A DNA stretch of 33,052 nt from a virus. The notes under the pieces are model-generated. The model searched no databases. It was not told the DNA's origin and was given only the letters and a program-made list of their open reading frames with translations. The DNA lies in IMG/VR virus record IMGVR_UViG_3300045988_025843, positions 1 through 33,052 of that record; one strand, 5' to 3'. Every line of letters starts with the position of its first letter. Positions within the stretch are counted from its first letter, which is position 1. Both the position numbers and the translations under genes were made by a program. This document shows positions 109 through 21,098 of the stretch, one piece after another.

Positions 109-1053
109 ATGGCATTTACATTTTCAGACCTTAACAAACTGAATATTAACAGTTTGAACGAAGTTATCTCTTTGACCGTCGGTTTGGCTGGTGAGATTTC
201 TAACGGTATTACCGTGCTTAACGGTATCGCTAACAACACGCCCGTTGTTTCCCTTACAGCAGCCGACAAGGCGCTGCGTAAATCAGCGGGTTGTGGCGGT
301 AAATACTTCTACGATACAGTAACCGACAAGGTTAAGTATTACACACACGCACCTATCGAACTGCCTATAGAAATCTGTTTGCAATCTTTGTGGGGTAAAA
401 TGGTGGCACGCGGTATTAACCTCGAAGACGATTTTTCTGCAACCGATTTGGCAGGCTTCATTCAGTCCGAAGTATTGAAGGTGTTGGAAGCTGACTTGTT
501 GCGTCTCGCGTGGTTAGATGGCGACGTTAAGGCAGATGCTACGGGCTACGGTATCTTTACACGCGGCGGTATTATCAAGCAGTTTAAAGATAGCAGAGAG
601 ACCGAAAACGTTTTGAAGCTCGACACAGAAGGCGTTCTTGCTGCACTTCGTGGAGCTATCGACGCACAACGCCCAGATACACTCGACACCTCGGAGTTCT
701 TCGTAACGTCTAACGTTATGCGCCTTTATAAGAACCTTTTGCAGGATAGAGATAACAGTGCTGCACAAAGTGACATTGTAGATGGCAAACCCGTTTACTT
801 CTTCGAGGGGTATAAGATTAACGAACTTCGCCACGTGTCTAACGCTGCCTTGGTTGACGGTAATACACAGGCTTTCGTAGCATTCACACCAAAGGACAAC
901 ATTCAGATTGCCTTGGAGGGTAGCTCTACTAACATTGCACCGTTCATCCAAGACGCGAAAAGCCGTAACTACTACTCACAGACCTTGTTCGCGGCTGATG
1001 CTATGTTGGTAGCACCCGAGAAAATGCAAATGTGGTTACTTGCTTCTGTGTAA
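109..1053 (+). CDS. Major capsid protein (HK97-fold, lambda gpE-like by recollection)
   Basis: This 314-aa ORF lies directly downstream of the protease/scaffold gene across the circular junction. C-terminal strings (DGNTQAF, LFAADAMLVAPEKM) recall gpE-type coat proteins. It is followed by a very strong intrinsic terminator, as expected for a highly expressed gene. The family call is from memory. Confidence 0.65.
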   Translation: MAFTFSDLNKLNINSLNEVISLTVGLAGEISNGITVLNGIANNTPVVSLTAADKALRKSAGCGGKYFYDTVTDKVKYYTHAPIELPIEICLQSLWGKMVARGINLEDDFSATDLAGFIQSEVLKVLEADLLRLAWLDGDVKADATGYGIFTRGGIIKQFKDSRETENVLKLDTEGVLAALRGAIDAQRPDTLDTSEFFVTSNVMRLYKNLLQDRDNSAAQSDIVDGKPVYFFEGYKINELRHVSNAALVDGNTQAFVAFTPKDNIQIALEGSSTNIAPFIQDAKSRNYYSQTLFAADAMLVAPEKMQMWLLASV

Positions 1054-1073
1054 TGAAAATTAGTATTAACAAT

Positions 1074-1108
1074 AAAAGGGGTTGGGATATTAACCCAGCC
1101 CCTTTTTC
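1074..1108 (+). terminator. Rho-independent terminator after the capsid gene
   Basis: A 9-bp GC-rich stem pairs GGGGTTGGG (1078-1086) with CCCAGCCCC (1094-1102), including one G-U pair. The loop is 7 nt, a T5 run lies at 1103-1107, and an A-run precedes the stem. Confidence 0.85.
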
Positions 1109-1120
1109 ATTTTATATAAT

Positions 1121-1633
1121 ATGGCAAAAACTTGTTTAAATAAACTTTCGAGTAACATCCTACAATCTTGCAGCATTACGCAGGTGGGGCTTAAAGACAT
1201 ATATCTGATGCACATAGAGGATGTTACTTTGGTTTCCGATGGTAAGATAGTTTCGGGTATAACCTTTGCCCCTGGTGCGAAAAGCTACAAAGTGGAAGGA
1301 TATAAACAAAACTTACAGTACACCGCAACCCTTAAAACAACGGACGCTTCTGCGAGGTTGAACACCTCGGTGACTTTTAAGATGCCCGCCGACGGTCCTA
1401 CAATGTCTACACTCGCAAATGGTAAATTTTATGTGATGGTACAATATCCGCACATAACTGCCGGGATTGTGGGTGTTCAATGCCCTTTAGAGTGTTCGGC
1501 AATGGAGTTCGACAGCAACGCAAATGCAGCACTTGTAACGGTTACATTGTCCGACCCGGAAGGTTCGGCAGGAAACGCACACATGTTGTGTTATAATGCG
1601 GTTCGCGATTCAATAATCTCTAAATCAGTTTAA
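1121..1633 (+). CDS. Virion-module paralog 1 of 3 (function unknown; tail-tube-sized)
   Basis: 170 aa. It shares an N-terminal MA-x-C...C pattern and a PGAK-Y-V block (APGAKSYKVEG) with the next two ORFs. It is tightly packed after the capsid gene. Confidence 0.8.
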   Translation: MAKTCLNKLSSNILQSCSITQVGLKDIYLMHIEDVTLVSDGKIVSGITFAPGAKSYKVEGYKQNLQYTATLKTTDASARLNTSVTFKMPADGPTMSTLANGKFYVMVQYPHITAGIVGVQCPLECSAMEFDSNANAALVTVTLSDPEGSAGNAHMLCYNAVRDSIISKSV

Positions 1634-1635
1634 TT

Positions 1636-2178
1636 ATGGCATGTATATCAAAATTAGCAAACGCAATTGCTTATAATTGCGACACGGGCGCTACTGGTTT
1701 AGTCAGCGCGTTGATTATTAATAAAGCGGATATCGCGAGTTTTACCCTGGACAGTGCAGGCGGCGCAGTTATGGCTATTAATTTAGTTCCCGGTGCTAAA
1801 GCGTATAGGGTTGACACCGTTAAACGCTCCCTTGTTGTGTCGAAGAGTTTGAAGGTTAACGATGGTGCACCGAATGCGTTCACTCACACCGCCACCATTA
1901 CAGACACGACAAACGTCACGGTAGGTACGCATGTCAGCTTTACTAAAGCTATATCTAACGGCTCGTTTGTTATTTTATATAAGCCCGTAGGCGCATCACA
2001 CGCCAGCGTAGTCGGGCTGTATTATGGCATGCGTGCGACAGCATTTGACCAAAGCAGCCACGATAATGGTTCTTGGACTACCGTAACGATTGAGACGCCC
2101 GAAAACGTTATTGGCGAAGATAATCTTAGCTTGGTTGGGAATACCTACGATGCAATGTACGCAGCGGCAGCAGTTTAA
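1636..2178 (+). CDS. Virion-module paralog 2 of 3
   Basis: 180 aa. It begins MACISKL..NC and carries DIASFTLD and VPGAKAYRVD, which are collinear with paralogs 1 and 3. The gap to the upstream gene is 2 nt. Confidence 0.8.
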   Translation: MACISKLANAIAYNCDTGATGLVSALIINKADIASFTLDSAGGAVMAINLVPGAKAYRVDTVKRSLVVSKSLKVNDGAPNAFTHTATITDTTNVTVGTHVSFTKAISNGSFVILYKPVGASHASVVGLYYGMRATAFDQSSHDNGSWTTVTIETPENVIGEDNLSLVGNTYDAMYAAAAV

Positions 2179-2204
2179 CTAATTAAAAGAAAGGAAAAAA
2201 TAAT

Positions 2205-2780
2205 ATGGCATGTATTGGAAATGTAGCCGCGAGTACGGCTATGCCTTGCGGAGCACCAGCGTCGGCAGATATGGGCAGACCCGTATCGGCAAAGATTTTA
2301 AACGCTTCTGACATAGCGAGTTTTACGGTGGACAAAGGAACGGCTATTATTACACGAAAGCCCGGTGCCATGGGCTACAGTGTAACCGCTATTAATAATG
2401 CTCTCACCGTCTCGGTGGGTCTTAAATCGCAGGACCTTATGCCCGGTGCTTACGATGTATCAATTACATTTAAGAACTTTAGCGTGGCACAAACAGAGGT
2501 TACATCTCTCCCGATGGGGGTGGTGAACGGTCTGTCACGCGCAGAAATCGTAATTGCAGTGGACCACGGGAACGGTAAAATTAGGGTGTACGGTTTGGGC
2601 GCTCCGTTGGTTTGTACTGAACTTGTGGGGGATTCTACGGCAAGCGAGTATTTTACATTCACTTATGGCGTCGAGGATTGGCAAGTAGGTACGACTATTC
2701 ACAGGATGGAACCGGCAGCTTATGACGCGTTATCCACACCAACACCAACACCAACACCAGCACCAGCACCAGGATCATAA
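2205..2780 (+). CDS. Virion-module paralog 3 of 3 with a C-terminal Pro/Thr/Ala tail
   Basis: 191 aa. It begins MACIGNV..PC and carries DIASFTVD and KPGAMGYSVT. It ends in TPTPTPTPAPAPGS, encoded by the hexanucleotide repeat at 2736-2771, followed by a double stop TAATAA. Confidence 0.8.
   Translation: MACIGNVAASTAMPCGAPASADMGRPVSAKILNASDIASFTVDKGTAIITRKPGAMGYSVTAINNALTVSVGLKSQDLMPGAYDVSITFKNFSVAQTEVTSLPMGVVNGLSRAEIVIAVDHGNGKIRVYGLGAPLVCTELVGDSTASEYFTFTYGVEDWQVGTTIHRMEPAAYDALSTPTPTPTPAPAPGS
2736..2771 (+). repeat. Hexanucleotide tandem repeat (ACACCA)x4 (GCACCA)x2
   Basis: Read directly from the sequence. It encodes the TPTPTPTPAPAP tail of paralog 3. Confidence 0.95.
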
Positions 2781-2795
2781 TAAATCAAAAAGAAA

Positions 2796-3152
2796 ATGGC
2801 AAAAGAAAAAACAAATACTACGGGGCAGGGTGAAAGCGCTGCACCCGTTGTTGTTGAACCGAAGGTTGCAACATTACAAGAGAAGTTGGATACGTATTAC
2901 ACAATGACCGGGCTAAAACTTGACCCTAATTGCCACGTGGATATGGAATATTTATCTTTGTGGTATGAAACGAAGTATCTGACAAAGGTGGTTTACAGAT
3001 GGGCAATGAAGCCCGAGGCGCGTATCGTGCATTACGTCGATGGTGTCGTTTACAAGCCCGCAAACATGACGGACGAAATAGCCGAACGACTTATGAAGGA
3101 GAACCCGGCTTACGCCGATTGCTTCGTAGAAATCAATAAAGAGGAGGTTTAA
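2796..3152 (+). CDS. Hypothetical protein (virion module)
   Basis: 118-aa ORF in the same frame as paralog 3 and 15 nt downstream of it. It is tightly coupled to the next gene. Confidence 0.7.
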   Translation: MAKEKTNTTGQGESAAPVVVEPKVATLQEKLDTYYTMTGLKLDPNCHVDMEYLSLWYETKYLTKVVYRWAMKPEARIVHYVDGVVYKPANMTDEIAERLMKENPAYADCFVEINKEEV

Positions 3153-3154
3153 AT

Positions 3155-4324
3155 ATGATAGGTTACAGACGTTTCGCGCTTGTTGTCGAAAAGGCGCTTA
3201 AGTTGTCCGCTAACACGGGCGATAAGATTATTAACTACGGTGACGGCAACTTATATCCGCAGGAAATAGCCGAGCTAATATACGCTTCAAAGACAGCCAC
3301 AGCCGCAGTTGAGAAAATGACCGAAAACATTATTTGCGAAGGGTTCAAAAACAAGGATTTCGCGGCGATAACAAACGGGAACGGCTGTAACATGGACGAC
3401 GTTTTAGAGGCTACGGCAAACGATGTTGCACGTTTTAGGGGCTGGGCTTGGATAATACAGTATGGATTGACACCCGAAGGCTACAAGCCCCGAAACGTGT
3501 ACAACGTTCCGTTTGAATATGTCCGTGCCGAGATGAACGACAACTATTTGAAAGACCCCACCATAAAGAGATGGCGCGTTTTCAATAACTGGGATAGACA
3601 GAACGTCAAAGCAACAAGCAGTGCGCAGAACTCCACAGTATATCATACCTTTGACCCGGAAAATTTCGCATCAGAGGTTGAGGAGTGCGGCGGTATTGAA
3701 AACCATAAGGGGCAGCTATTATACGTGAACCTGGGAACAACCCGACCGTACCCCCTTAGCACGTTCCATTCGGTACGAAACGAGATGGGTGCGGAGGACA
3801 AGAACGGTAAATACGTTAACCGTACTTTGGGCAGGGGTTTCCACATGTGTAGCATCGTGTCGCACGGTGATTTCGAGTCCGAGCAGGCACAACAAGAATT
3901 CCGCGATACGTTAGCCGAGATGATGGGTAGCGAGAACGCTGGCTCCGTGCTTACCGTAAGGGACGAGAACGTAGCCACGGACAAACCGTTTATCAAGGTA
4001 GACCAGTTAGGCAGTCCTATAGATAGGGAGCTTTACAAGGCTTATGTGGAACCCCTTAGAAAGGATATTGCGATAGCGGCTTATAACATCCCGTTACCCC
4101 TTATTGACAGTTCGCTGATGACCTACTCAAACGCCTCGGGCGAGGTCATAAAGGAACTGCAAAAGGTCTATCGCAATAGCTTGCAGAAGATACGTCAACG
4201 CATTTCACGCGAGTTGTACCAAGTGTTCGGGGTTGACCCGTCAGTTACAGAAATTAATAATAAATTTGAAGAAGATGGCAAACCTAAAAGCATACCCGGT
4301 AGCACAGTTCCGCCAGCTGTTTGA
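3155..4324 (+). CDS. Putative portal protein (tentative)
   Basis: At 389 aa it is the only head-module protein of portal-like size that has no other assignment. The N-terminal segment (GNLYPQEIAELIYASKTATAAVEKMTENI) resembles the N-terminal region of HK97/SPP1-type portals. It is not adjacent to terL, so the call is weak. Confidence 0.4.
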   Translation: MIGYRRFALVVEKALKLSANTGDKIINYGDGNLYPQEIAELIYASKTATAAVEKMTENIICEGFKNKDFAAITNGNGCNMDDVLEATANDVARFRGWAWIIQYGLTPEGYKPRNVYNVPFEYVRAEMNDNYLKDPTIKRWRVFNNWDRQNVKATSSAQNSTVYHTFDPENFASEVEECGGIENHKGQLLYVNLGTTRPYPLSTFHSVRNEMGAEDKNGKYVNRTLGRGFHMCSIVSHGDFESEQAQQEFRDTLAEMMGSENAGSVLTVRDENVATDKPFIKVDQLGSPIDRELYKAYVEPLRKDIAIAAYNIPLPLIDSSLMTYSNASGEVIKELQKVYRNSLQKIRQRISRELYQVFGVDPSVTEINNKFEEDGKPKSIPGSTVPPAV

Positions 4325-4718
4325 AATAGCGACGGACGTTAAAGGCAACAAGATAGAAAAGGCGTTCTCGGAGGCAGACCTACTCGACATATTGCCGCAG
4401 ATTGGTTGCATGTACGATGCCGTACCCGATAAATATATCTCGGACGGGTCTAACTTCGCAGGACTTGAAAAGGTTATTTGTTATTACGCGTTCGCGCGGT
4501 ATTTGCAGATAGCAGACCAAAACAGTACGAGCACGGGTATGAAGATTCAGACATACGGCGGCTCGGTAGTCGTTCCAGATACAAGCAAGGTTAAGAGGTT
4601 TGAAGCCGAACGGGGCAAGGCAGACCTTTTTATAGAGCCGTTAATTTGCCAAATGAAGGCGGACGGGTTTATAAAGGCATGCACAGTATCGAACACCCGT
4701 ATAGGGCTAATCAAGTGA
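4275..4718 (+). CDS. Hypothetical protein (start uncertain: 4233 or 4275)
   Basis: The ORF is open from 4233. The ATG at 4275 (MANLKAY...) reduces the overlap with the upstream gene to 50 nt. No domain was recognised. Confidence 0.6.
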   Translation: MANLKAYPVAQFRQLFEIATDVKGNKIEKAFSEADLLDILPQIGCMYDAVPDKYISDGSNFAGLEKVICYYAFARYLQIADQNSTSTGMKIQTYGGSVVVPDTSKVKRFEAERGKADLFIEPLICQMKADGFIKACTVSNTRIGLIK

Positions 4719-5194
4719 TAGAACAATTAGAGACCTATTTCCGCACGTTTTTTGCTGTGACCGTTCTTGCAGTAGTTACGGATATACGGGACCTTATATT
4801 TTTAGTGGTTATCGTTACCGCGTTGAACTGGCTGGTAGGTTATTTGGCAGACAGGGCGAAAGGAAAGCCCTATAAGCACAAAAAGACTATGCAGGCGGTT
4901 AAGGAGTTGTTTTTAACGAATGCAATTCTTTTCTTTGTAGCACTAACATGTGATATGTTGGAGCCTGGGATAGATTATCAGCTTTTAGTTAAGGCACTCA
5001 CGGGTATATTCCTTATTATATACGCGCGTAACATAACAAGAAACCTTAGGGTAGTACAGCCGGGAAATGAATTCGTGAAGGTGCTAAACAGCATAGCGAA
5101 TAGCAAGTATTTCCAACTTAAGAGAAAGATTAAGGACGGCGAATTTGAAACACCCTTAGAAGAAAAGGAGAAAGAAGATGGCGAACAGCAGTAA
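4646..5194 (+). CDS. Holin-like multi-pass membrane protein (start uncertain)
   Basis: Three or more hydrophobic segments are present (FFAVTVLAVVT.., LIFLVVIVTALNWLVGYL, AILFFVALTCDML, ALTGIFLIIYA), with a charged C-terminus. It lies immediately upstream of the endolysin and overlaps it. Alternative in-frame starts are the ATG at 4679 and the GTG at 4715, which overlaps the upstream TGA. Confidence 0.6.
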   Translation: MPNEGGRVYKGMHSIEHPYRANQVIEQLETYFRTFFAVTVLAVVTDIRDLIFLVVIVTALNWLVGYLADRAKGKPYKHKKTMQAVKELFLTNAILFFVALTCDMLEPGIDYQLLVKALTGIFLIIYARNITRNLRVVQPGNEFVKVLNSIANSKYFQLKRKIKDGEFETPLEEKEKEDGEQQ

Positions 5195-5693
5195 ATTAGT
5201 ACCGTTCATCCTACAGTGGGAAGGTGGTTTCGTTAACGACCCGGACGACCTGGGGGGTGCAACAAACAAAGGTATCACCATAGGCACATTCACCGAATAC
5301 AAGAAGCGGAAGGGGCAAAAAGCCCCTACCGTCGACGACTTGAAAAACATATCTGATGCCGAATGGCACAATGTTTTTAAGTCCTTGTATTGGGATAGGT
5401 GGAAAGCCGACGAAATCAAAAACCAATCAGTAGCCAATATCTTAGTTGATTGGGTTTGGGCTTCGGGGTCGCACGGTATAAAGCGCCCACAACGTCTTTT
5501 AGGCGTGAAGGCGGACGGAATTGTAGGTAAACAGACCATTGCAGCCGTTAACGCTATGGACGCGGCTACGCTCTTTAAAATGATTAAAGACGATAGGGCA
5601 AAGTTCATCGATGAAATATGCAAGGCGAGACCCAAAAACGAGAAATACCGTAAAGGTTGGATGAACCGTATTAATGCGATACGCTATGAATAA
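5178..5693 (+). CDS. Endolysin: GH108-type lysozyme with a PG_binding_3-like C-terminal domain
   Basis: The N-terminal signature ILQWEGGFVNDPDDLGGATNKGIT matches the GH108 EGG..D..D.GG.T..GI motif. The C-terminal LLGVKADGIVGKQTIAAVN is typical of the associated peptidoglycan-binding domain. Confidence 0.85.
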   Translation: MANSSKLVPFILQWEGGFVNDPDDLGGATNKGITIGTFTEYKKRKGQKAPTVDDLKNISDAEWHNVFKSLYWDRWKADEIKNQSVANILVDWVWASGSHGIKRPQRLLGVKADGIVGKQTIAAVNAMDAATLFKMIKDDRAKFIDEICKARPKNEKYRKGWMNRINAIRYE

Positions 5694-6264
5694 ACTGCAA
5701 AAGATAATTATAGACTTTGCGGTCCTTATGGTGCTGTTTGGTGCGGTAACCAAGATGGTAGACACCATAAGGAAGCAAAGAGCCGAAATAGGACGTTTAG
5801 AACGTAACGTTGAGGCGATGAACGATGCACAGATAGAGTACAAAACAAAGCTCGGAGATGCAGCAGTGAAGCGTAAAGCTTTAGAGATGGCGCACAAGGA
5901 GCTAAAGAAAACGAACGCAGACCTATATAAAGAGGTGGACGCGCTTAATGTCCGGGTGAAAGATGCGTTATCGGCGACCCGTACCGTTACCAAGACCGTA
6001 ATAAAGGAGGTTGTGCGTACCGATACGGTAGCTGGCGAGTCGATAGCAGAATACCGGGACGCATGGAATACGATACAAGCAAGGGTTAAACGGGATAGCA
6101 CGGAATTAAGCTACCAAGGTAGGGACACGATAACGGGCGTTATCACAGTTCGGAAGAAAAAGTTCTTGTTTTTCAGATGGGGGGTCAAGGCTATAGAGCA
6201 CGACATGTCAAACAAAAACCCCAAAACAAAGATAGATATAGACATAGCGGTAAAGCTAAAATAA
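5674..6264 (+). CDS. Membrane-anchored coiled-coil protein (i-spanin-like; alternative start 5686)
   Basis: It has an N-terminal TM segment (IIIDFAVLMVLFGAV) followed by a long charged heptad-like region. It is the last gene of the lysis cassette. No partner lipoprotein was found nearby. Confidence 0.5.
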   Translation: MRYAMNKLQKIIIDFAVLMVLFGAVTKMVDTIRKQRAEIGRLERNVEAMNDAQIEYKTKLGDAAVKRKALEMAHKELKKTNADLYKEVDALNVRVKDALSATRTVTKTVIKEVVRTDTVAGESIAEYRDAWNTIQARVKRDSTELSYQGRDTITGVITVRKKKFLFFRWGVKAIEHDMSNKNPKTKIDIDIAVKLK

Positions 6265-6271
6265 TTAGGAG

Positions 6272-6301
6272 ATGGAGGGCTGTTAACAGTTCTCCATTTT
6301 T
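6272..6301 (+). terminator. Rho-independent terminator ending the late/lysis operon
   Basis: An 11-bp stem pairs ATGGAGGGCTG (6272-6282) with CAGTTCTCCAT (6287-6297), including two G-U pairs. The loop is TTAA and a T-run follows to 6301. Confidence 0.8.
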
Positions 6302-6318: not shown

Positions 6319-6538
6319 CACAGCCTGCACAGTAGAAAAGTAGGTCTGTGCAGGTCTCTGTGCAGTCTAACTCCTTATATTATAATACATTATATGTAAA
6401 TGCACAGTAAGCACAGTAAAAAGGGGGTAAAACATTATTCTGGAGAAAATAGCATTCACCACTATAGAACGGGCTGTAAAAACCACTATATTCTATATTA
6501 AAGTTTAGAAATTTAGGTGTGTTTCTGTGCTGTGCAGG
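6319..6538. repeat. Element X copy 1: CTGTGCAG/CTGCACAG octamer cluster, AT-rich core and hairpin
   Basis: CACAG lies at 6319-6323 and CTGCACAG at 6325-6332. CTGTGCAG lies at 6346-6353 and 6358-6365 (12-bp period). An AT-rich stretch with TATAAT follows. CACAG recurs at 6403-6407 and 6412-6416. A hairpin pairs TATAGAA (6463-6469) with TTCTATA (6491-6497). CTGTGC/CTGTGCAG closes the element at 6525-6537. The layout is collinear with 22688-22892. Confidence 0.9.
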
Positions 6539-6627: not shown

Positions 6628-6659
6628 GATACAACCTATTGTCATTTGCCGTATCTTTG
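6628..6659 (+). promoter_or_regulatory. Promoter of ncRNA locus A (ACAAC element plus -7 box TATCTTTG)
   Basis: TATCTTTG at 6652-6659 matches the Bacteroidota -7 consensus TAnnTTTG. GATACAAC starts exactly 24 nt upstream, the same spacing as in six other promoters in this genome. Confidence 0.7.
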
Positions 6660-6665
6660 TAATGT

Positions 6666-6872
6666 CAAAAGGAAACAAGGTTGTTCTTTACTGAAACTAA
6701 GAACATGATACCCTTAAAAGGAAAGTTTGAAAAGTGAATGGGATTCAAACACCGGGCTACCCAAAGACAAACAAAAAACTAAGAGGTTGCTTTTTACCAA
6801 AACTAAGAGCACGATACCCGAAAGGGAAAGTTTGAAAAGTGAAAGGGATTCAAACACCGAATAGTTTTTTTT
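6666..6872 (+). ncRNA. Tandem two-hairpin structured RNA, locus A (2 units of about 105 nt)
   Basis: Unit 1: GGT (6679-6681), stem 6682-6688/6699-6705, then ACC (6710-6712); hairpin 2 pairs GTTTGAA (6725-6731) with TTCAAAC (6744-6750). Unit 2: stem 6788-6794/6805-6811; hairpin 2 pairs 6830-6836 with 6849-6855 and is followed by a T8 run (6865-6872). There is no ORF. Stems are supported by compensatory changes between the four copies. The 5' end is inferred from the promoter. Confidence 0.65.
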
Positions 6873-6929: not shown

Positions 6930-6937
6930 TAGATTTG
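6930..6937 (+). promoter_or_regulatory. -7 box TAGATTTG upstream of the 6973 gene
   Basis: It matches TAnnTTTG and ends 36 nt before the ATG at 6973. The upstream CAAC element is absent. Confidence 0.45.
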
Positions 6938-6972: not shown

Positions 6973-7197
6973 ATGAAAGCAATTGATTTAATTTTCAGAG
7001 AAACGATGACCGAGGGTCAATTCGAGATGAAGAGCCACGTATTAGTATTTATAGACGAGGCAGGCAACGAGTATAGCGATACTTTTTCAGAGGTACGCCA
7101 TAACGGAAGATTCGAAGCATACCAATACAACGGTATGGAATACCAGCACATGCAGGACCTTTTAGAAGCTATTTTCTTAAATAGTGTTAACAAGTGA
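6973..7197 (+). CDS. Hypothetical early protein
   Basis: 74-aa ORF, the first gene after ncRNA locus A. No motif was recognised. Confidence 0.6.
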   Translation: MKAIDLIFRETMTEGQFEMKSHVLVFIDEAGNEYSDTFSEVRHNGRFEAYQYNGMEYQHMQDLLEAIFLNSVNK

Positions 7198-7227
7198 ACC
7201 AACGTATTAGCAAAAGCGTTATATTTG
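7196..7227 (+). promoter_or_regulatory. Early-class promoter cassette (GAACCAAC-N16-TATATTTG)
   Basis: GAACCAAC lies at 7196-7203 and the -7 box TATATTTG at 7220-7227. The conserved leader CATCAACAATTTAAAAAG follows, then the ATG at 7254. Confidence 0.7.
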
Positions 7228-7253
7228 CATCAACAATTTAAAAAGATAAAGCT

Positions 7254-7511
7254 ATGGAAGAACAAAAGTTTATTATCGACGAAGTGAAAAAGCATTTGCA
7301 GGCGAGAGCGAGGAAGAACAAATGCCGAGTTATTGATGCAGCGCAGGAAATGCCGACGTTTGAGGGATTTATACTCCCTTACTACGCCTCTACAATGGAA
7401 GGAGCGAAATACCCGGTAAACGTAGAAGAAATGTATATCTACTGTGACGAGTGGGAAGAGTTCTATAACGAGACAGTAGCCAAGGTCGCACAAGCCATTC
7501 TGGAAGCCTAA
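7254..7511 (+). CDS. Hypothetical early protein
   Basis: 85-aa ORF behind its own promoter cassette. Confidence 0.65.
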   Translation: MEEQKFIIDEVKKHLQARARKNKCRVIDAAQEMPTFEGFILPYYASTMEGAKYPVNVEEMYIYCDEWEEFYNETVAKVAQAILEA

Positions 7512-7561
7512 CAAATCAAGGAAGCGTAAATTAGTTATTCACCATATAAAAAGAAAAGAAA

Positions 7562-8131
7562 ATGAAGATTACACCGTTAACAATCGATTTTGACGTTACA
7601 AACGCACAAGAAGTAGAGTTTGTAAATGACCTAATGAACCGTCTATTTGGAAGTGCACCGCTTAAGGCTACGGCAGCGCCTACAGAAAGCCCCGTAAACA
7701 GTACAAGCGTACCGACGTTTAGTGAACCGACACAGACCGCTGCGCCCGTTCAAGAATTTAAGAAGGAAGCCACAGCGGTAGCTATTGCAGAGGAAACAAT
7801 AGTAGACGCCATCGCGGAAGTGAAGAAGGAAATGAAAAAGCCCGAAAAGGTAGCAAAGCCAAAGACCGTAAAGGAAGCCCCACAAGCGACGATTGAACCC
7901 GAACCCGTACAAGCTCCCCTCGAAGAGGAGAAAGCCCCGGAGAAAGCCTCAAACGAGCCTCTAACGGCGAAGGACATGCAGGCGTTCATGATTGATATGA
8001 TGAAAACCGGGAAAATCACTCGTCCACAATTAACGGATATCATGCTTGAGTTCGGCGGCGCGTCCCTTATGCGTATCAAGCCCGAGAAGTACGAGCTATT
8101 GAAACAACGTATTGAAACCTATAACGATTAA
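7562..8131 (+). CDS. Hypothetical protein with a long Pro/Glu/Lys/Ala-rich central region
   Basis: 189 aa with structured-looking termini and a low-complexity centre (..KPEKVAKPKTVKEAPQATIEPEPVQAPLEEEKAPEK..). It lies directly upstream of the nuclease gene. Confidence 0.65.
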   Translation: MKITPLTIDFDVTNAQEVEFVNDLMNRLFGSAPLKATAAPTESPVNSTSVPTFSEPTQTAAPVQEFKKEATAVAIAEETIVDAIAEVKKEMKKPEKVAKPKTVKEAPQATIEPEPVQAPLEEEKAPEKASNEPLTAKDMQAFMIDMMKTGKITRPQLTDIMLEFGGASLMRIKPEKYELLKQRIETYND

Positions 8132-8136
8132 AAAGA

Positions 8137-9315
8137 ATGAAAGTACAAGTAGACCACACAAGTAGGGCACACGCCCTACTTTCCCCGAGCAGCTCGCACC
8201 GCTGGCTTAACTGCACACCTTCCGCGCGATTGGAGGAACCGTATGAGAGCACGAGTAGCGCGGCATCAGAAGAGGGAACGGTAGCGCATGAGTTGGCAGA
8301 GTATGCGATAGAAAAGTATTTATCCGGGGAATACCTACCGTTATTGGACGAATTGCCCGTACCCGACGAAATACGTAACAACAAATACTATAGTTCAGAA
8401 ATGGAACACTACATAACCGACTACGTTTGCTACGTGTGTGACATATACGAGTTGGAGGAAGGCGCTAAAATGAGTATAGAACGGAAGTTCGACCTAACAA
8501 CATACGTTCCCGAGTGTTTTGGTAGCTGCGACTGCGACATAGTAGGCGAAACGGTTCTAAATATCATAGACCTAAAATACGGAAAGGGCGTACAAGTGGA
8601 CGCTGATTGGAATAGCCAATTAATGATGTACGCTATCGGGGTGCTTAACTCCTTAGAACCATCGCACCGCGCAAAGATTGAAACGGTACGCATGCACATT
8701 GCACAAGTACGGTTAGGCAATTACTCGGTATTCGAGACGTCCGCACGGGACTTGACCCACTGGGCGATACACGTACTACGCCCCACCGCCGAAAAGGCAT
8801 GGGCAGGACAAGGGGAAACCAAAGTAGGCAGCCATTGTAAGTTCTGCAAGTTCAAAGCGCAATGCAGGGCACAGAAAGATGCTTTAGTTAGCGAGTTCGA
8901 GGCACACGGGGACGCCAAGGCGTTAACTCTTGACGAGATAGGCGATATACTAAGCAAGTCCGATATGTTCACCGACTGGCTGGCATCGGTCAAGACTTTC
9001 GCAATGCAAGCCGCCACAAGGGGCGAAAAGGTCAAGGGGTGGAAGCTCGTAGAGGGAAGGTCAGCACGTGTAATAAACGACACGGAAACAGCTATAGAAC
9101 GCCTAAAAGCTTTAGGTTTCTCAACCGAGGACATAACTAACAGCAAACTGAAAGGTATCGGAGACCTGGAACGGCTCGTAGGTAAGAAACCGCTCGCCGC
9201 TGCGCTTGACGGGCTGATAGTCAAGCCAAAAGGGATGCCAACATTAGCCCCGGAAAGCGATAAGCGCGAGGCGCTAAGCCCTACTATTGACGACTTCGAG
9301 AAATTAAATTCATAA
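8137..9315 (+). CDS. PD-(D/E)XK nuclease with a Cas4-like Cys cluster (DUF2800-type)
   Basis: It carries CDCDIVG...IIDLKYGKG (a D...D/E-x-K core) and C-terminal CKFCKFKAQC plus an N-terminal Cys, as in Cas4/RecB-family 4Fe-4S nucleases. At 392 aa and positioned before the DUF2815-like SSB, it fits a known phage replication module. Confidence 0.75.
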   Translation: MKVQVDHTSRAHALLSPSSSHRWLNCTPSARLEEPYESTSSAASEEGTVAHELAEYAIEKYLSGEYLPLLDELPVPDEIRNNKYYSSEMEHYITDYVCYVCDIYELEEGAKMSIERKFDLTTYVPECFGSCDCDIVGETVLNIIDLKYGKGVQVDADWNSQLMMYAIGVLNSLEPSHRAKIETVRMHIAQVRLGNYSVFETSARDLTHWAIHVLRPTAEKAWAGQGETKVGSHCKFCKFKAQCRAQKDALVSEFEAHGDAKALTLDEIGDILSKSDMFTDWLASVKTFAMQAATRGEKVKGWKLVEGRSARVINDTETAIERLKALGFSTEDITNSKLKGIGDLERLVGKKPLAAALDGLIVKPKGMPTLAPESDKREALSPTIDDFEKLNS

Positions 9316-9330
9316 AAGAAGTTAACGAAA

Positions 9331-9362
9331 GAACCAACCTATCAGATAAAGCGTTATATTTG
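9331..9362 (+). promoter_or_regulatory. Early-class promoter cassette (GAACCAAC-N16-TATATTTG)
   Basis: GAACCAAC lies at 9331-9338 and TATATTTG at 9355-9362, followed by the leader GTTATCAAATTAAAAAC. GTTAACGAAAGAACCAAC is identical to the copy at 21089-21106. Confidence 0.7.
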
Positions 9363-9388
9363 CGTTATCAAATTAAAAACAAAACGAT

Positions 9389-9697
9389 ATGAAAAGTAAC
9401 AACGGTATCCTAACAGAGAAAGAGATTCAAGAAAGAACAAAGTTTTGGAGTAAAAAGCAGTTCCGCACATGGAGCAAGAAAGAACTTGAAAGAACCTCTA
9501 AATACATGCAAAATCTTTTGGTAGCCCTAAAGGAATTCAGTATGGACGAGATTAAGGCTATTAGAAAGTTAGACCGGTATGGCTTTGATTCATACTACAA
9601 AAATGACCCGAAGTATATCGTACGGATGGCAGACCAAAGAGACTTAGATTATGCTATTTTGATAGCGCCAAAAACTTTTAAAGTTAAACAAGGTTAA
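9389..9697 (+). CDS. Hypothetical protein
   Basis: 102-aa ORF behind a promoter cassette. Confidence 0.65.
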   Translation: MKSNNGILTEKEIQERTKFWSKKQFRTWSKKELERTSKYMQNLLVALKEFSMDEIKAIRKLDRYGFDSYYKNDPKYIVRMADQRDLDYAILIAPKTFKVKQG

Positions 9698-9702
9698 CAG
9701 AG

Positions 9703-9730
9703 TAAACAACCTATTTATTTGTTATCTTTG
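9703..9730 (+). promoter_or_regulatory. Promoter cassette variant (AAACAAC, 20-nt offset, -7 box TATCTTTG)
   Basis: TATCTTTG lies at 9723-9730, followed by the leader CACCATCAAATTAAAAAC. The upstream TAAACAAC starts at 9703, an offset of 20 nt rather than 24. Confidence 0.6.
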
Positions 9731-9793
9731 CACCATCAAATTAAAAACGGAACGCCCGAACCGATTAGAGGGCAAAAACAAAAATTGTAGAAT

Positions 9794-10327
9794 ATGAAAG
9801 CAATGATTAAGAACGTGAGATTGAGTTATGTTAGATTGTTTGAAGCGCAACAAGTCAACGGACAAGGAGAAGCAAGTTACAGTGTATGCTTATTGATTCC
9901 GAAGGATAGCCCGGAAGTCCCAAAGATTAAAGCAGCTATCGAAGCCGAGTTTTCAACTCTTAAGGCACGTTATCCGAAGTTGAACGGCAAAGACCCGAAG
10001 GTATGGGCTAACCCATTAAGAGATGGGGATGCTGAGAAAGACGGCGCAGAGTATCAAGGTTGCTACTTTATCAACGCAAAGCGTAAAGAGAAGCAAGGCG
10101 CGCCTATCGTAATCGACGGTAAGAAACAGTACATCACAGACCCGAATGAGGTTTATAGCGGTTCTTGGGGCAACGTAGCCGTATCTTTCTATCCTTATGA
10201 GTTTACCGGGAAATACGGTATCGGTGTAGGTTTGAACGGTGTGCAGAAGACAAGAGACGATGAAAGACTGGATGGTGGTATAAGCCTTGACGATTTTGAT
10301 TTCGAAGACGACGACCTTTTCAACTAA
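9794..10327 (+). CDS. ssDNA-binding protein (DUF2815 / T7 gp2.5-like)
   Basis: The N-terminus MKAMIKNVRLSYVRLFEA is characteristic of DUF2815 phage SSBs. The acidic C-terminal tail (DDFDFEDDDLFN) is typical of gp2.5-type SSBs. Confidence 0.75.
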   Translation: MKAMIKNVRLSYVRLFEAQQVNGQGEASYSVCLLIPKDSPEVPKIKAAIEAEFSTLKARYPKLNGKDPKVWANPLRDGDAEKDGAEYQGCYFINAKRKEKQGAPIVIDGKKQYITDPNEVYSGSWGNVAVSFYPYEFTGKYGIGVGLNGVQKTRDDERLDGGISLDDFDFEDDDLFN

Positions 10328-10353
10328 CAATTCAATTAGACAGAATAATAACC

Positions 10354-10372
10354 GGGCGGTGTAATGCCGCCC
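10354..10372 (+). other. GC-rich hairpin after the SSB gene (no downstream T-run)
   Basis: GGGCGG (10354-10359) pairs with CCGCCC (10367-10372) around a 7-nt loop. It is followed by an A-run rather than a T-run, so it is not a canonical + strand terminator. Confidence 0.35.
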
Positions 10373-10389
10373 AAAAATAAAAAGCAAAA

Positions 10390-11490
10390 ATGGGGAAATA
10401 CGATTCGTACGTAAACGAAGAAGGTGTTAGGATTTCAAAGGTAACGGGAAAACCGTTGAAAAAGTATAATAAGGTCAACAAGGCATACTGGGCAGCTCGT
10501 GAAGGCAAAGCATTAGTAGGGGTACAGCAACCTATAGTAGAGGTAGACCCGTTGATAGAGGAGCTTAAAAGCTATTACAACGAAGAAGAATTAAGGGGTA
10601 TTATCGGTTTGAAGAAAGACGCGCCGCCCGTCGAACTGGTACACATCACACCGAAGAAAAAGACATCACTCGACGAGGGAAACACTGGGTTTCTTATTGC
10701 ATCAGACTGGCATGCCGACGAAGTAGTAAAGGCATCTACGGTATTGGGCAAAAACGAATATAACAAGGGTATCGCAGAAAAGCGTATCACTAATTTCTTT
10801 GCGAATGCCGCCTATATGATAAAGAAAAAGCCAGTAGATAACTTGGTTATCGGTTTGATTGGCGATATGATAGGCGGCTACATTCACCCCGAACTCGAAC
10901 AGACAAATAGCATGCCCCCGATGCGCGGTGTTAACTTCGTTAAGAGCCTAATTATTTCCGGGCTTAAGTATCTGCACGACCAACTGCCGGAACTTGAAAA
11001 GATAACCGTCATCGGTATTTGCGGAAACCATTCAAGAACTACAAAAAAGATGCAGTTTAGCAACGGTTTCGAGATGAATTATGAATATTTCATGTACAAG
11101 GACATCGAACACAACCTAACACTTATGGGGCTGACAAAATTCAGTTTCATTATCCCCGAAAGTGAATTTGCTTATATCGACGTGTACGGAAAGAAAGTGT
11201 TATTCGCACACGGGCATCAATTCCGCACGGCTGGCGGTATCGGAGGCATTTACCCGTCAATGATGCGCTGGTACGCAAAGATGAACCAAACAATACAAAT
11301 TGATAAAGCCTTTATCGGGCATTACCACCAAATGATATATACTAAAGAGGTTTGCGTAAACGGTTCTTTGAAGGGTTTCGACGCGTTCGCAATGGGGCAC
11401 GGACTGGCATATGAGGAACCGCAACAAACATACGTTATTCTGAACGAGAAGCGAGGCTTTATTTTCTACTCGCCTATTTTTGCAGATTAA
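10390..11490 (+). CDS. Calcineurin-like metallophosphoesterase (Mre11/SbcD-like)
   Basis: The ordered motifs SDWHAD, GDMIGG, GNHSR, HGHQF and GHYH match the phosphoesterase signature D-x-H / GD / GNH / H / GH. Confidence 0.8.
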   Translation: MGKYDSYVNEEGVRISKVTGKPLKKYNKVNKAYWAAREGKALVGVQQPIVEVDPLIEELKSYYNEEELRGIIGLKKDAPPVELVHITPKKKTSLDEGNTGFLIASDWHADEVVKASTVLGKNEYNKGIAEKRITNFFANAAYMIKKKPVDNLVIGLIGDMIGGYIHPELEQTNSMPPMRGVNFVKSLIISGLKYLHDQLPELEKITVIGICGNHSRTTKKMQFSNGFEMNYEYFMYKDIEHNLTLMGLTKFSFIIPESEFAYIDVYGKKVLFAHGHQFRTAGGIGGIYPSMMRWYAKMNQTIQIDKAFIGHYHQMIYTKEVCVNGSLKGFDAFAMGHGLAYEEPQQTYVILNEKRGFIFYSPIFAD

Positions 11491-11494
11491 GTTA

Positions 11495-11546
11495 AAAAGG
11501 CTACTAATTGTTAAATAAATGCAATCAGTAGCCTTTCTTCTTGTTT
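11495..11546 (+). terminator. Rho-independent terminator after the phosphoesterase gene
   Basis: AGGCTACT (11498-11505) pairs with AGTAGCCT (11527-11534), flanked by an A-run upstream and the T-rich tract TTCTTCTTGTTT downstream. Confidence 0.7.
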
Positions 11547-11550
11547 ATTA

Positions 11551-11633
11551 AAAACATTGTCGTACCTTTGCCGTTATAATGGTATTAACAGTTAAAACAT
11601 TGTCGTACCTTTGCCGTTATAATGGTATTAACA
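11551..11633 (+). repeat. Exact 40-nt direct repeat x2 (43-nt period), each copy carrying TACCTTTG; tandem promoter candidates for the polymerase operon
   Basis: 11551-11590 is identical to 11594-11633 (AAAACATTGTCGTACCTTTGCCGTTATAATGGTATTAACA). The partial string TTAAAACA at 11635-11642 resembles the TTAAAACA that spans the junction into copy 2. TACCTTTG lies at 11563-11570 and 11606-11613, and each copy also contains TATAAT. Confidence 0.9.
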
Positions 11634-11649
11634 ATTAAAACAATGAGTT

Positions 11650-13668
11650 ATGAGACATTTATTCATCGACTTTGAAACGTATTCCGAAACGGACATTAAA
11701 AGCGCTGGTAATTATAAATACTGTGAGGACATGAATTTTGAAATTCTCCTTTGCGGATACATGTGGGACACAGATACGGAGGTTTCAATTATCGACTTAA
11801 CGAAGCCCGGAGGACTGGACGAGTTTAACGAGCTGTTCCTATATGTACAGAACAACGAGGACGTTGTGATAGTCGCGCACAACGCTACATTTGAGCGTAT
11901 CTGTTTGCGTGAATATGGGTTTGACATAAGCCCTATGCGCTTTTTCTGTACGGCTAACATGTCATTGTATTGTGGTATGCCGGCATCATTGGAAGCGGTA
12001 TCCAATATTCTGAACCTGGACGATAAGAAGAAAGGCACGGGCAAAAACCTTATCCGTTACTTTTCTATCCCTTGCAAACCCACCAAAACAAACGGAGGGC
12101 GCACACGTAATATGCCGGATCACGCCCCCGAGGACTGGAAAGAGTTCATAGATTACTTGCGATATGATGTGCTTTCTGAAAAGGAGATATTCGGTAAGTT
12201 GTCCCGGTTTGAATTCCCGGAAGAAGAGCAGCGAATTTATGCAGCTGACCAACGAATAAACGATTATGGCATATTGGCAGACCTTGATTTAGCACACGCC
12301 GCGCAAGATATGGACGAAGAATATAAGGCACGTCTTACTGAAAGAGCCGAAAAGGAATACGGGTTAAGCTCCTTAAAGTCCATGCCTCAGCTTAAGGGCT
12401 TCATTAAAGAGCGTACGGGCGTGGTTATCGATTCCCTCAATAAGAATAGCATCGAAGAGGTGGTAAAGACCGTAGCGAGCCTTAAAAACGTTACTGACGA
12501 GGATAAGCAAGCAGTGTTAGACGTTATCGACCTACGTAGGGAGATAGGCAAAACGTCGAACGCCAAGTACACCGCCATACTCGCAAGCGCCGGGAGGGGC
12601 AACCGTATCAGAGGTTTGTTCCGTTATTACGGGGCGAACCGTACCGGGCGATGGGCTGGGCGATTGGTTCAACTACAGAACCTACCGCAAAACCACATTG
12701 AAGACCTGGACGGGGCACGAGAACTGGCAAAGATGCACGATCTGGATATGATGGAAGTTATATACGACAAACCGACGCATATACTATCGCAGCTTATACG
12801 TACCGCGTTTATCGCCCCCGAAGGGTACACGTTCGCTGTAGCTGACTTCTCGGCGATTGAGGCACGTGTAATTGCCTGGGTTGCTAATGAGCAATGGCGT
12901 TTAGACTTATTTAACGACCCGAAGGCTGATATATATTGCGCTTCTGCGTCTAAAATGTTCGGTGTCCCGGTACACAAGGGCGACGACTTAAGGCAGCGCG
13001 GTAAGGTAGCGGAGCTTGCACTCGGATACGGCGGCGGCGTTAACGCCCTTACCACAATGGATATTAAAAAAGCGTTAGCAGATGAAGAAAAACCTCAAAT
13101 ATTGTCAAAATGGAGAGAAGCTAATAAAAAAATAGTATTTTTGTGGCGTTCGTTAGAAGACAGCGCAAAAAGATGTATCGGAACAAGGCGTGAACAAGTC
13201 TATAAAATAGACGATGTTTCAAGTATTATATTTCGATATGAGAGCGGCGCAATGACTATTGAACTACCAAGCGGTAGAAAGCTGTTCTACCCGTCTGCAA
13301 GAATGGGAAAACGTACTATCGAGGGCGTTAACGGCTCGTTTGAGGTTGAGGATATATCCTACATGGGTCAAGACCAAACCTCCGGGAAATGGGTTAAGCT
13401 AAACACATACGGAGGCAAGTTAACCGAGAACGTTGTGCAGGCGATAGCCCGTGACTTGCTGGCGAATGCGATTTTTAAGGTATTTGATTTAGGCTTTAAT
13501 ATCGTGTTGCATGTTCACGATGAAATAGCCGCCGAAATACCGAAGGATGGAAACGAAGAAAAGACGCTGCAAATAATGAGTGATGCCATGTGCAGCGCCC
13601 CGAGCTGGGCAAAGGGCATACCATTAAGAGCAGCAGGTTATATTACTGAATATTACAAAAAAGATTAA
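11650..13668 (+). CDS. Family A DNA polymerase with 3'-5' exonuclease domain
   Basis: The exonuclease motifs are FIDFETYS, HNATFE and YLRYDV. The polymerase motifs are A (FAVADFSAIEARV), B (RQRGKVAELALGYGGG) and C (VLHVHDEI). Confidence 0.9.
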   Translation: MRHLFIDFETYSETDIKSAGNYKYCEDMNFEILLCGYMWDTDTEVSIIDLTKPGGLDEFNELFLYVQNNEDVVIVAHNATFERICLREYGFDISPMRFFCTANMSLYCGMPASLEAVSNILNLDDKKKGTGKNLIRYFSIPCKPTKTNGGRTRNMPDHAPEDWKEFIDYLRYDVLSEKEIFGKLSRFEFPEEEQRIYAADQRINDYGILADLDLAHAAQDMDEEYKARLTERAEKEYGLSSLKSMPQLKGFIKERTGVVIDSLNKNSIEEVVKTVASLKNVTDEDKQAVLDVIDLRREIGKTSNAKYTAILASAGRGNRIRGLFRYYGANRTGRWAGRLVQLQNLPQNHIEDLDGARELAKMHDLDMMEVIYDKPTHILSQLIRTAFIAPEGYTFAVADFSAIEARVIAWVANEQWRLDLFNDPKADIYCASASKMFGVPVHKGDDLRQRGKVAELALGYGGGVNALTTMDIKKALADEEKPQILSKWREANKKIVFLWRSLEDSAKRCIGTRREQVYKIDDVSSIIFRYESGAMTIELPSGRKLFYPSARMGKRTIEGVNGSFEVEDISYMGQDQTSGKWVKLNTYGGKLTENVVQAIARDLLANAIFKVFDLGFNIVLHVHDEIAAEIPKDGNEEKTLQIMSDAMCSAPSWAKGIPLRAAGYITEYYKKD

Positions 13669-13672
13669 ATCT

Positions 13673-16111: not shown

Positions 16112-16202
16112 TAACAGAGAGGGGCGTAAAAGCCTCCAAATGTTAACTAACTGTTAACAGAATAACTAAATGAAATTTATCTCTTAAATGGTGTTAACGG
16201 AA

Positions 16203-16234
16203 TATACAACCTATCAGTATTTGCCGTATATTTG
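16203..16234 (+). promoter_or_regulatory. Promoter of ncRNA locus B (ACAAC element plus -7 box TATATTTG)
   Basis: TATACAAC starts at 16203 and TATATTTG lies at 16227-16234, a 24-nt offset. It is collinear with 6628-6659. Confidence 0.7.
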
Positions 16235-16240
16235 TAATGC

Positions 16241-16450: not shown

Positions 16451-16529
16451 AAATAAAAAGGCAATAACGGTGAACCATTTCAAAGCTTCCGTTGTTCTTA
16501 TAGTATAACAATTTAAAAAACAAAAGATT

Positions 16530-16940: not shown

Positions 16941-16988
16941 AGAAGTGTTTTTGTTATTACAGCATATGCAATTTTAAAAAGAAAAATT

Positions 16989-17192: not shown

Positions 17193-17193
17193 A

Positions 17194-18383: not shown

Positions 18384-18409
18384 CAGCAAATTAAAAAACA
18401 TAATTAAGT

Positions 18410-19129: not shown

Positions 19130-19139
19130 AACAGAAATC

Positions 19140-19382: not shown

Positions 19383-19389
19383 TAAAGCT

Positions 19390-21046: not shown

Positions 21047-21098
21047 GGTACGGGCTATCACTGAAAGATAGCTTAATACTTAAATTATGTTAACGAAA

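Follow-up and report, generated by a model that had tools for sequence, protein, structure and literature searches.

A family of promoter-associated four-way junction RNA domains predicted in siphophages of Bacteroides and Phocaeicola

This study describes a repeated element, predicted to function as a structured RNA, in the viral DNA of IMG/VR record IMGVR_UViG_3300045988_025843 (positions 1 to 33,052, a stretch of 33,052 nucleotides referred to here as the window). The element occurs as two tandem units at locus A (6628-6872) and two at locus B (16204-16450), each pair placed behind a promoter. Each unit is predicted to be a self-contained RNA domain of about 100 nt, namely a four-way junction inside an outer stem, in which the stems vary by compensatory change while the loops and linkers are the most conserved parts. 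Related units were found in other phages of Bacteroides and Phocaeicola, where they are present in some genomes and absent from close relatives. These data uphold the proposal of a preliminary description of this DNA that locus A holds a promoter-driven structured RNA of a new phage noncoding RNA family, backed by covariation and distinct from tRNAs, riboswitches and CRISPR arrays, and they revise several of its details.

The covariation was counted in an alignment (A4) of 52 distinct units fitted to the covariance model, over 19 base pairs, and was controlled by 500 shuffles and by sliding the 3' partners by 1-3 columns. Standard pairs filled 97.2% of the cells compared with 88.1% in the shuffles, and slid partners paired in only 33-47%. 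Changes on both sides were seen in 13 of the 19 pairs, including five in hairpin 1 and six in hairpin 2, and none of the 500 shuffles reached this count or the covariation score. The earlier observation that stem differences among the units are compensatory was therefore confirmed, with all controls passed. The covariation of hairpin 2 was also seen, independently of the model, in a MAFFT alignment, and the columns in which the two closing stems, P1 and P0, covary are unaffected by where gaps are placed. When RNAalifold was run on the MAFFT alignment, it paired GGU wrongly, with the ACC of loop 1, and missed hairpin 1, owing to a one-base gap in the Phocaeicola units, and this was resolved by the model-based alignment.

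Concerning the fold, the two hairpins of the preliminary description, each with a 7-bp stem and the second with a 12-nt loop, agree with our coordinates, and they are now placed in a four-way junction inside an outer stem. The GGU preceding hairpin 1 had been thought to be closed, across a 4-nt bulge, by an internal ACC; this pairing is broken and never compensated in all six variant units. The ACC located 3' of hairpin 2 compensates in the same six (GGC/GCC in five units and CGU/ACG in L100), and the internal closure is therefore wrong. The resulting stem, P1, closes a four-way junction consisting of P1, hairpin 1, a 2-3-bp CC(C)/GG(G) helix and hairpin 2. This junction is the minimum-free-energy structure given by ViennaRNA for all four window units as well as for the divergent units L100 and L103. 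Outside P1 and beyond a purine-rich internal loop (AA/GG or AGA/GAA) lies the outer stem P0, which varies by unit type (UGUC/GACA, GGAAAC/GUUUUC, AAACUA/UAGUUU, GAAGC/GCUUC or GUCGG/CCGAC) and always pairs. Its columns 5-90 are A-U in 32 units, G-C in 10 and C-G in four, and its columns 6-89 are C-G in 18 units and G-C in five.

The single-stranded parts behave in the opposite way to what had been described earlier, when loops and linkers were thought to drift freely. Six of the 10 positions of loop 1 and eight of the 12 of loop 2 are invariant, as are the whole AAA linker and the CC/GG pairs, compared with only one of 14 and two of 14 stem positions in the two hairpins. The positions flanking loop 1 covary (U/U in 43 units and C/C in nine), leaving an 8-nt core, ACCRAAAC; the loop of hairpin 2 has the consensus AAGUGAAWGGRA. 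A covariation scan for loop-loop or pseudoknot pairs found no Watson-Crick pair between loops, and the only signals it added were the outer-stem pairs and the U/U to C/C change on either side of loop 1. Hairpin 1 carries a bulged A in one Phocaeicola subgroup, and the adjacent G-C pair has become U-A in two units. The conservation of the loops persists between phages whose primase-helicase proteins are merely 59% identical (the Phocaeicola phages), and the window units share 66-82% identity with the Phocaeicola units. This pattern suggests an RNA whose single-stranded surfaces are recognised by some partner.

In the window, the covariance model matched exactly four units, all on the + strand. 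The two tandem units at locus A are spaced by 105 nt, as described earlier and as repeat families D4, D6 and D8 agree; the second pair, previously placed at 16241-16450, is likewise present, with a spacing of 107 nt in the repeat analysis. Unit A1 (6663-6769; model match 6671-6757, 107.3 bits), whose minimum-free-energy fold is the same junction, comprises the outer stem UGUC at 6663-6666 with GACA at 6766-6769, P1 formed by GGU at 6679-6681 with ACC at 6751-6753, hairpin 1 at 6682-6705 (7-bp stem, 6682-6688 with 6699-6705), the CC/GG mini-helix region at 6711-6721, hairpin 2 at 6725-6750 (7-bp stem, 6725-6731 with 6744-6750, 12-nt loop) and a small GGGCUACCC hairpin at 6754-6762. Unit A2 (6773-6872; model match 6777-6862, 100.8 bits), in which the minimum-free-energy and centroid folds coincide (z = -2.85), has its outer stem at 6773-6781 with 6862-6870, P1 at 6785-6787 with 6856-6858, hairpin 1 at 6788-6811, CCC-GAAA-GGG at 6817-6826 and hairpin 2 at 6830-6855.

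At locus B, unit B1 (16244-16341; model match 16246-16335, 101.5 bits) has an outer stem of AAGGAAAC at 16244-16251 with GUUUUCUU at 16334-16341, which includes the covarying columns 5-90 and 6-89, followed by P1 at 16254-16256 with 16329-16331, hairpin 1 at 16257-16280 and hairpin 2 at 16303-16328 (GAUUAAA with UUUAAUC). Unit B2 (16353-16450; model match 16357-16442, 95.8 bits; fold z = -2.42) consists of the outer stem at 16353-16361 with 16442-16450, P1 at 16365-16367 with 16436-16438, hairpin 1 at 16368-16391, CCC-GAAA-GGG at 16397-16406, hairpin 2 at 16410-16435 with one G-U pair, and a T6 run at 16445-16450. A terminal hairpin followed by a T8 run had been reported at the end of locus A. 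The T8 run is present (6865-6872), but it forms no canonical terminator and is unlisted by the terminator scan, being the 3' strand of the A/U outer stem (AAAAAACUA with UAGUUUUUU) that encloses unit A2.

Protein coding was rejected at both loci. The approximately 200 nt following the promoter at locus A had been described as free of open reading frames (ORFs), and only non-ATG ORFs of at most 47 aa were found there. At locus B, a 51-aa ATG ORF (16188-16343) begins inside the promoter and is shortened to 21 aa in the relative L079. Indels of 1, 3 and 4 nt in the mid-region of the units also count against coding.

The promoter of locus A (6629-6659, + strand) consists of a conserved block, ATACAACCTAT...GCCGTA, and a -7 box, TATCTTTG, at 6652-6659, where a Bacteroidota-type box had indeed been noted. 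The promoter of locus B (16204-16234, + strand) has the same conserved block (87% identity) and the -7 box TATATTTG at 16227-16234; both boxes are matches to the motif TANNTTTG in a scan of the window. Among the tabulated arrays, the units always lie directly after a promoter and in the same sense as the downstream genes, and a TAnnTTTG box begins 19-20 nt 5' of the model match in 30 of 34; in the window, the distance is 19 nt. Because of this spacing, the outer stem would include the extreme 5' end of the predicted transcript. We infer that one or two domains are made from a strong host-type promoter as a noncoding transcript. Since the protein gene that comes first after locus A (ORF 6973-7197) has a separate -7 box in front of it, TAGATTTG (6930-6937, + strand), the units at locus A would form their own transcription unit in the window; this box is kept in the relatives L016, L017 and L021 despite a deletion of the sequence directly 3' of it.

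The promoter block (ATACAACCTAT...GCCGTAtnTTTG, then UGUCAAAAGGAAA) also occurs among relatives free of units. It runs directly into an ORF in L169 and phage BKR1, and it leads to a short hairpin, GGAAAC-AAAG-GUUUCC, in L124, L142 and L121. As the stem of this hairpin is the P0 stem, the unit resembles an insertion into the hairpin loop. In L079 and L089, the promoter leads to an unrelated structured module of ~210 nt, a unit and a U-run, after which come a second copy of the promoter and an ORF; no ORF was found in the first transcript of L079. The genes downstream of units are small, variable between genomes and without annotation or family matches.

The family was seeded with a hairpin 2 pattern, which gave 27 IMG/VR loci, and six isolate loci were fetched; a covariance model was then built from 38 distinct units. 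This model, a check proposed in the preliminary description, found relatives in Bacteroides and Phocaeicola phages, with 51 units in the gathered sequences, all scoring at least 83 bits, and a next best match of 20 bits. Anchoring on the primase-helicase gene added divergent units (L052, L071, L074, L079, L100 and L103), which were found only in this way because the strict hairpin 2 pattern missed them. A hairpin 2 pattern with free stems added one chance match in a coding region in IMG/VR and six chance matches in the JGI metagenomes, none of which fits the model. In the distant Bacteroidales phages PM93P1, BKR1, SJC23 and BF503P1, which have the same replication module, nothing above 9.4 bits was found near the primase gene. 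With no model match from the pattern searches or the distant phages, the family appears confined to one clade of Bacteroides and Phocaeicola siphophages.

Known RNA classes gave no match. ARAGORN detected no tRNA or tmRNA gene in the window, and a tRNA or tmRNA was rejected for the units themselves, whose 7-bp stems carry loops of 10 and 12 nt and in which UUCAAAC is a covarying stem strand rather than a T loop. The 4227 models of Rfam 15 gave no match over the whole window at gathering thresholds, and at E <= 10 only two spurious matches of ~13 bits were obtained, against thresholds of 80 and 39. Our literature search found no paper on an RNA in these phages, and the region carries no annotation in any of the 37 related GenBank phage records that match the locus.

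Genomes have between 0 and 4 copies, placed at locus A, at locus B or at both; only these two loci were scored for presence and absence. Phage BU2-1 has one unit, at locus A only, with none beside its primase gene. The Phocaeicola phage BM127P1 has its two units at locus B alone, and the second of them follows a promoter-like block without a consensus -7 box. In IMG/VR, 11 of 68 primase loci have units; of 59 loci where the late region ends, 25 do, two of which retain only a truncated remnant. Among 46 contigs sampled at both loci, 25 have at least one unit and 21 have none, and genomes that are otherwise >90% similar differ in having or lacking the element. Intermediate states were also observed: only hairpin 1 is left in L150 (2499-2565) and L152, after a deletion between A-rich microhomologies, and the unit of L027 (198-287) is a recombinant of two unit types, its hairpin 2 combining GAUUAAA with UUCAAAC at the cost of two mismatches. 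Judged from these comparisons, the element is accessory: it is gained, lost, duplicated and recombined among near-identical phages, as anti-defence and host-range determinants are.

The genomic setting of the loci was obtained from a comparison with the BU2-1 annotation and protein family scans. The window has an exact 99-nt direct repeat at its ends (1-99 = 32954-33052), probably a circular-assembly overlap or terminal redundancy, all its long ORFs are on the + strand, and for most of its length it shares 87-89% identity with C2_18_80S2P, EMB1, EMB2 and BU2-1, which are Bacteroides uniformis siphophages. Based on this evidence, the window is a complete B. uniformis siphophage genome of ~33 kb. 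On the + strand it encodes the capsid, head-tail adaptors, portal, holin and endolysin (109-6264), replication and small accessory genes (6973-22522), and the terminase and tail genes (23200 to the window end). The replication genes include a DUF2800 exonuclease, DNA polymerase A (11650-13668), a VapE-type primase-helicase (13673-16111) and, 3' of the latter, methyltransferases and helicases. The terminator scan placed strong + strand terminators at 1074-1106, 6268-6301 and 22604-22639. Locus A is the first promoter-driven element past the late-region terminator and heads the replication and early genes; locus B lies 9.6 kb from it, directly 3' of the primase-helicase gene.

Several other repeats and promoters were observed in the window. 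The octamer CTGTGCAG or its complement occurs eight times in the genome (0.45 expected), with four copies in each of the intergenic regions 6325-6537 and 22693-22891. These regions, which follow the terminators at 6268 and 22604, also share repeat blocks of 83 and 60 nt (D9 and D11) and look like duplicated operator or regulatory regions at the two late-early boundaries. A block of 63-100 nt (GTTAAC ... AACCAAC-TA ... GTTATATTTG ... AATTTAAAAA ... ATG; repeat families D1-D5) is common to five or six promoters, with sites at 7159-7259, 9294-9394, 16172-16234, 18317-18406 and 21062-21162. It is a phage-specific promoter-plus-leader cassette, whose upstream element is CAAC-like rather than the Bacteroides -33 TTTG. 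Just 5' of the DNA polymerase gene, a 43-nt segment holding a -7 box (TACCTTTG) and then GTTATAATGGTAT is perfectly duplicated in tandem (11551-11636, D10). The motif GTTNTNANNGTAT has four copies (0.36 expected), each within ~80 nt 5' of a start codon and three of them at 34-36 nt.

The site behind the primase-helicase gene also holds other noncoding sequences among the relatives. In L079, L074, L052, L071 and L089, the first locus B unit is replaced by the unrelated, self-closed module of ~210 nt (module X; 3365-3545 in L079, and also listed for L009 and L018), which has several hairpins and is closed by pairing of the transcript 5' end (UGUUGAAAGG with CCUUGCAAC); the whole L079 locus folds with z = -2.78. 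The module contains no ORF and has no Rfam match at gathering thresholds or at E = 10, and it may be a second new RNA module on the same promoter. In L074, L052 and L071, the remaining unit and its U-run are followed by a hairpin-containing spacer instead of a second promoter. In phages SJC23 (L037, 3822-4030) and BKR1 (L036, 3825-4032), the primase-helicase gene is directly followed by a -7 box and by 150-200 nt of noncoding sequence without homology to the unit; the SJC23 region has a strong terminator at its end, CCCACCCUAGCA...UGCUAGGGUGGUUUUU, and folds with z = -2.85. The site after the primase-helicase gene may be a general slot for small RNA genes.

As for function, we tentatively lean towards an RNA that binds protein and acts in trans, as a decoy, a sponge or a scaffold; its most plausible target would be a host factor specific to certain strains. 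We give this reading somewhat less than an even chance. The domains would be transcribed at the head of the replication and early region, just after the primase-helicase gene, or at both places, and would act in trans. A specific partner, most likely a host or phage protein, would recognise a surface made up of the invariant loops and the purine-rich linker, with the stems serving as scaffold only and the copy number setting the dose, as in RNA decoys and sponges. The partner would be a host defence or takeover target rather than core phage machinery, and it is probably strain-specific because closely related phages carry or lack the element. The accessory status speaks against a replication origin or iteron array and against an antiterminator needed for the early operon. 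The early regulatory sRNA suggested in the preliminary description is a further possible role.

Several observations weigh against this trans-acting role. No promoter lies between the last unit and the next start codon in L007, L011, L025, L033 and the Phocaeicola loci L003, L005 and L006, so that in these relatives the unit would be, at least also, a 5' leader. The U-run is absent from six single-unit loci (L001, L012, L016, L017, L021 and L030) and has only four Us in L008 and L013; a discrete small RNA from such loci would therefore need processing. G-U exceeds A-C only mildly among the mismatch cells (17 vs 12, with eight of the 12 A-C cells from one bulge), and the transcribed strand is read mainly from the promoters because this wobble asymmetry is merely suggestive. 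The free-stem hairpin 2 pattern gave two chance matches in 185,579 bacterial species genomes, neither in Bacteroidales and none fitting the model. Finally, no antisense target stands out in the phage genome, where only complementarities of 9-11 nt were found, which by estimate is roughly the chance level in an AT-rich genome; the longest one involving a conserved loop is TTTCACTTTT at 6592, upstream of the RNA's own promoter.

The main rival, since the unit of several relatives amounts to no more than the 5' portion of an mRNA, is a cis-acting leader, in which the nascent junction RNA acts on its own transcript or on the transcribing polymerase and controls the downstream genes. Such a leader might work by processive antitermination, as HK022 put does, by attenuating transcription at the U-run, or by shielding the mRNA at its 5' end. 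The units are always promoter-proximal and oriented like the downstream genes, the 5' extremity of the transcript is paired within the outer stem, and in the seven relatives lacking a second promoter the next ORF would have to be transcribed through the unit; the presence of two loci in the window also recalls putL and putR of HK022 (PMC9378689). However, of the near-identical genomes sampled at both loci, about half have no unit at either and keep the same promoter and downstream genes, so that the unit is not required for downstream expression. Its position is not fixed, as seen in BU2-1 and BM127P1, the downstream genes vary between genomes, a separate promoter follows the units in the window, L079 and L089, and the early region holds no strong + strand terminator to override, the strong ones being at 1074, 6268 and 22604. 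We regard a leader function as possible, though on balance rather unlikely. The leader and trans-acting roles are compatible, and small RNAs derived from 5' leaders are common.

A narrower form of the trans-acting reading, which we consider clearly unlikely as a specific proposal, is an RNA-only counter-defence or host-takeover factor, with a fold of its own, a four-way junction whose invariant loops would capture a strain-specific Bacteroidaceae protein or a small signalling molecule. The captured protein might be an immune effector, a sensor or an RNA-binding regulator, and the copies (0-4) might tune the dose without any copy of a host RNA.

An RNA of a new class that either senses a ligand as an aptamer (riboswitch) or cleaves itself as a ribozyme appears improbable. 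A junction of several helices, its loop and junction nucleotides invariant and its stems free to covary, is the typical pattern of such RNAs, the units are tandem, and some lie within a 5' leader. Against this, no Rfam family matched even at E = 10, no expression platform is recognisable (neither a separate terminator or anti-terminator nor a start-codon overlap), the downstream genes form no consistent functional class, and the distribution is very narrow, being that of a single phage clade.

It is very improbable that the unit mimics a known host immune RNA, whether as an RNA anti-CRISPR resembling a CRISPR repeat or as a pseudo-ToxI-like element resembling a type III antitoxin repeat. The tandem and variable copy number recalls the pseudo-ToxI expansion in phage PhiTE (PMC3475682), the promoter-driven noncoding arrangement is like that of RNA anti-CRISPRs (Racrs; PMC10651486), and the accessory distribution would also fit. 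The CRISPR-repeat mimic suggested in the preliminary description does not survive, since GGGATTCAAAC, as the 3' strand of hairpin 2, covaries and is replaced by GGAATTTAATC in 20 of 52 units (~40%); because of this, no repeat-like sequence is conserved. An RNA anti-CRISPR, which resembles a host CRISPR repeat in sequence and structure and has a conserved repeat with its handle, was accordingly rejected: the segment once likened to ATTGAAAC alternates among TTCAAAC, TTTAATC, TTCAATC, TTCAGAC and TTTTATA, the first two each in many units, with the opposite strand compensating, and conservation spans ~87 nt and four helices, far larger than a CRISPR repeat. No Bacteroidales match was found in the 185,579 species genomes with a pattern that also demanded GGAAAG and CACC flanks and so would miss a bare repeat, and no host-encoded counterpart was detected at the level of species representatives.

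The suggested type III antitoxin mimic fares no better, as the units are junctions of ~100 nt, no toxin-like gene lies downstream, and no host copy was found by the strict hairpin 2 pattern. Known type III antitoxin repeats measure ~36-45 nt. In a type III toxin-antitoxin locus, tandem short repeats are accompanied by a Rho-independent terminator and an endoribonuclease toxin gene, and processing yields a short antitoxin monomer with a pseudoknot and single-stranded tails; the antitoxins for which crystal structures exist are pseudoknotted RNAs (PMC5086642). The phage unit, with its 12-nt loop and junction, is unlike these, and antitoxins of the ToxI, CptI and TenpI types were rejected, given a T-run lying within the A/U outer stem, a nested four-way junction and no pseudoknot covariation. 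No ToxN-like or other defence protein follows either locus: the downstream ORFs (74, 85, 189, 136, 67, 53, 240 and 118 aa) had no PADLOC match, and the seven other than the 118-aa ORF had no toxin-like match in Pfam and PHROGs.

Least probable of all is a DNA-level iteron or origin array for the adjacent primase-helicase, comparable to ori/crr of satellite phage P4, whose crr consists of two direct repeats of ~120 bp; in arrays of this type, the primase-helicase binds short conserved repeats in direct orientation, which replication needs in cis. Locus B does directly follow the VapE-type primase-helicase gene, the two loci 9.6 kb apart each hold tandem repeats of ~105 bp, and the excess of G-U over A-C is weak, but an origin could not be lost as the units are in 21 of the 46 contigs and beside the primase gene of BU2-1, the units are tied to a promoter at a fixed distance, and the compensatory changes in 13 pairs, with stem sequences free to vary, are unlike protein-binding iterons, so P4-type iterons were rejected.

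Bacteroides and Phocaeicola are dominant human gut bacteria, and we know of no structured RNA that has been functionally characterised for their siphophages. If the decoy or sponge role is true, RNA-based phage counter-measures would extend beyond mimics of CRISPR repeats and antitoxins, and the RNA would offer a pull-down handle on the host factor. Bacteroidota have unusual promoters and unusual translation initiation, and if the cis-acting role is true, the unit would be, to our knowledge, the first RNA leader element of such a kind described in this phylum. In either case, the covariance model can now annotate the region that is blank in the 37 related GenBank records.

Among known phage RNAs, the stable RNAs C and D of phage T4 (species 1 and 2), structured RNAs of ~120-140 nt, are encoded in a tRNA cluster, transcribed from an early promoter as part of a multi-domain precursor, processed together with tRNAs, and dispensable in the laboratory. 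The present element is likewise a compact, highly structured phage RNA by prediction, whereas the window holds no tRNA. It also resembles the orphan RNA motifs of phages and Bacteroidota in Rfam in its covariation, conserved loops and consistent promoter context, and differs in matching none of the 4227 models. In these comparisons the element does not fit the defining features of the Racr, pseudo-ToxI and T4 RNA C/D families, and it differs from put in architecture.

The put elements of HK022 (putL and putR) are also phage-encoded and promoter-proximal, occupy two loci and work as folded nascent RNA with no protein; they consist of two stem-loops, act only in cis and regulate early gene transcription by suppressing pausing and termination (PMC9378689). 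The phage unit, in contrast, is predicted to be a closed four-way junction, is often tandem and not fixed in position, has no sequence relation to put and is missing from roughly half of the close relatives for which both loci were sampled. Racrs and pseudo-ToxI are, like the present element, small, noncoding, promoter-driven and accessory, with one to several tandem copies that vary between phages. Each reproduces a host RNA sequence, namely a CRISPR repeat (Racrs) or an antitoxin repeat of ~36 nt (pseudo-ToxI), whereas the phage unit would be a four-way junction of ~100 nt, with no host counterpart found and a repeat-like segment that covaries. By analogy, therefore, the phage RNA decoys (Racrs, PMC10651486; pseudo-ToxI, PMC3475682) appear to be closest to this element in behaviour, and HK022 put (PMC9378689) closest in position.

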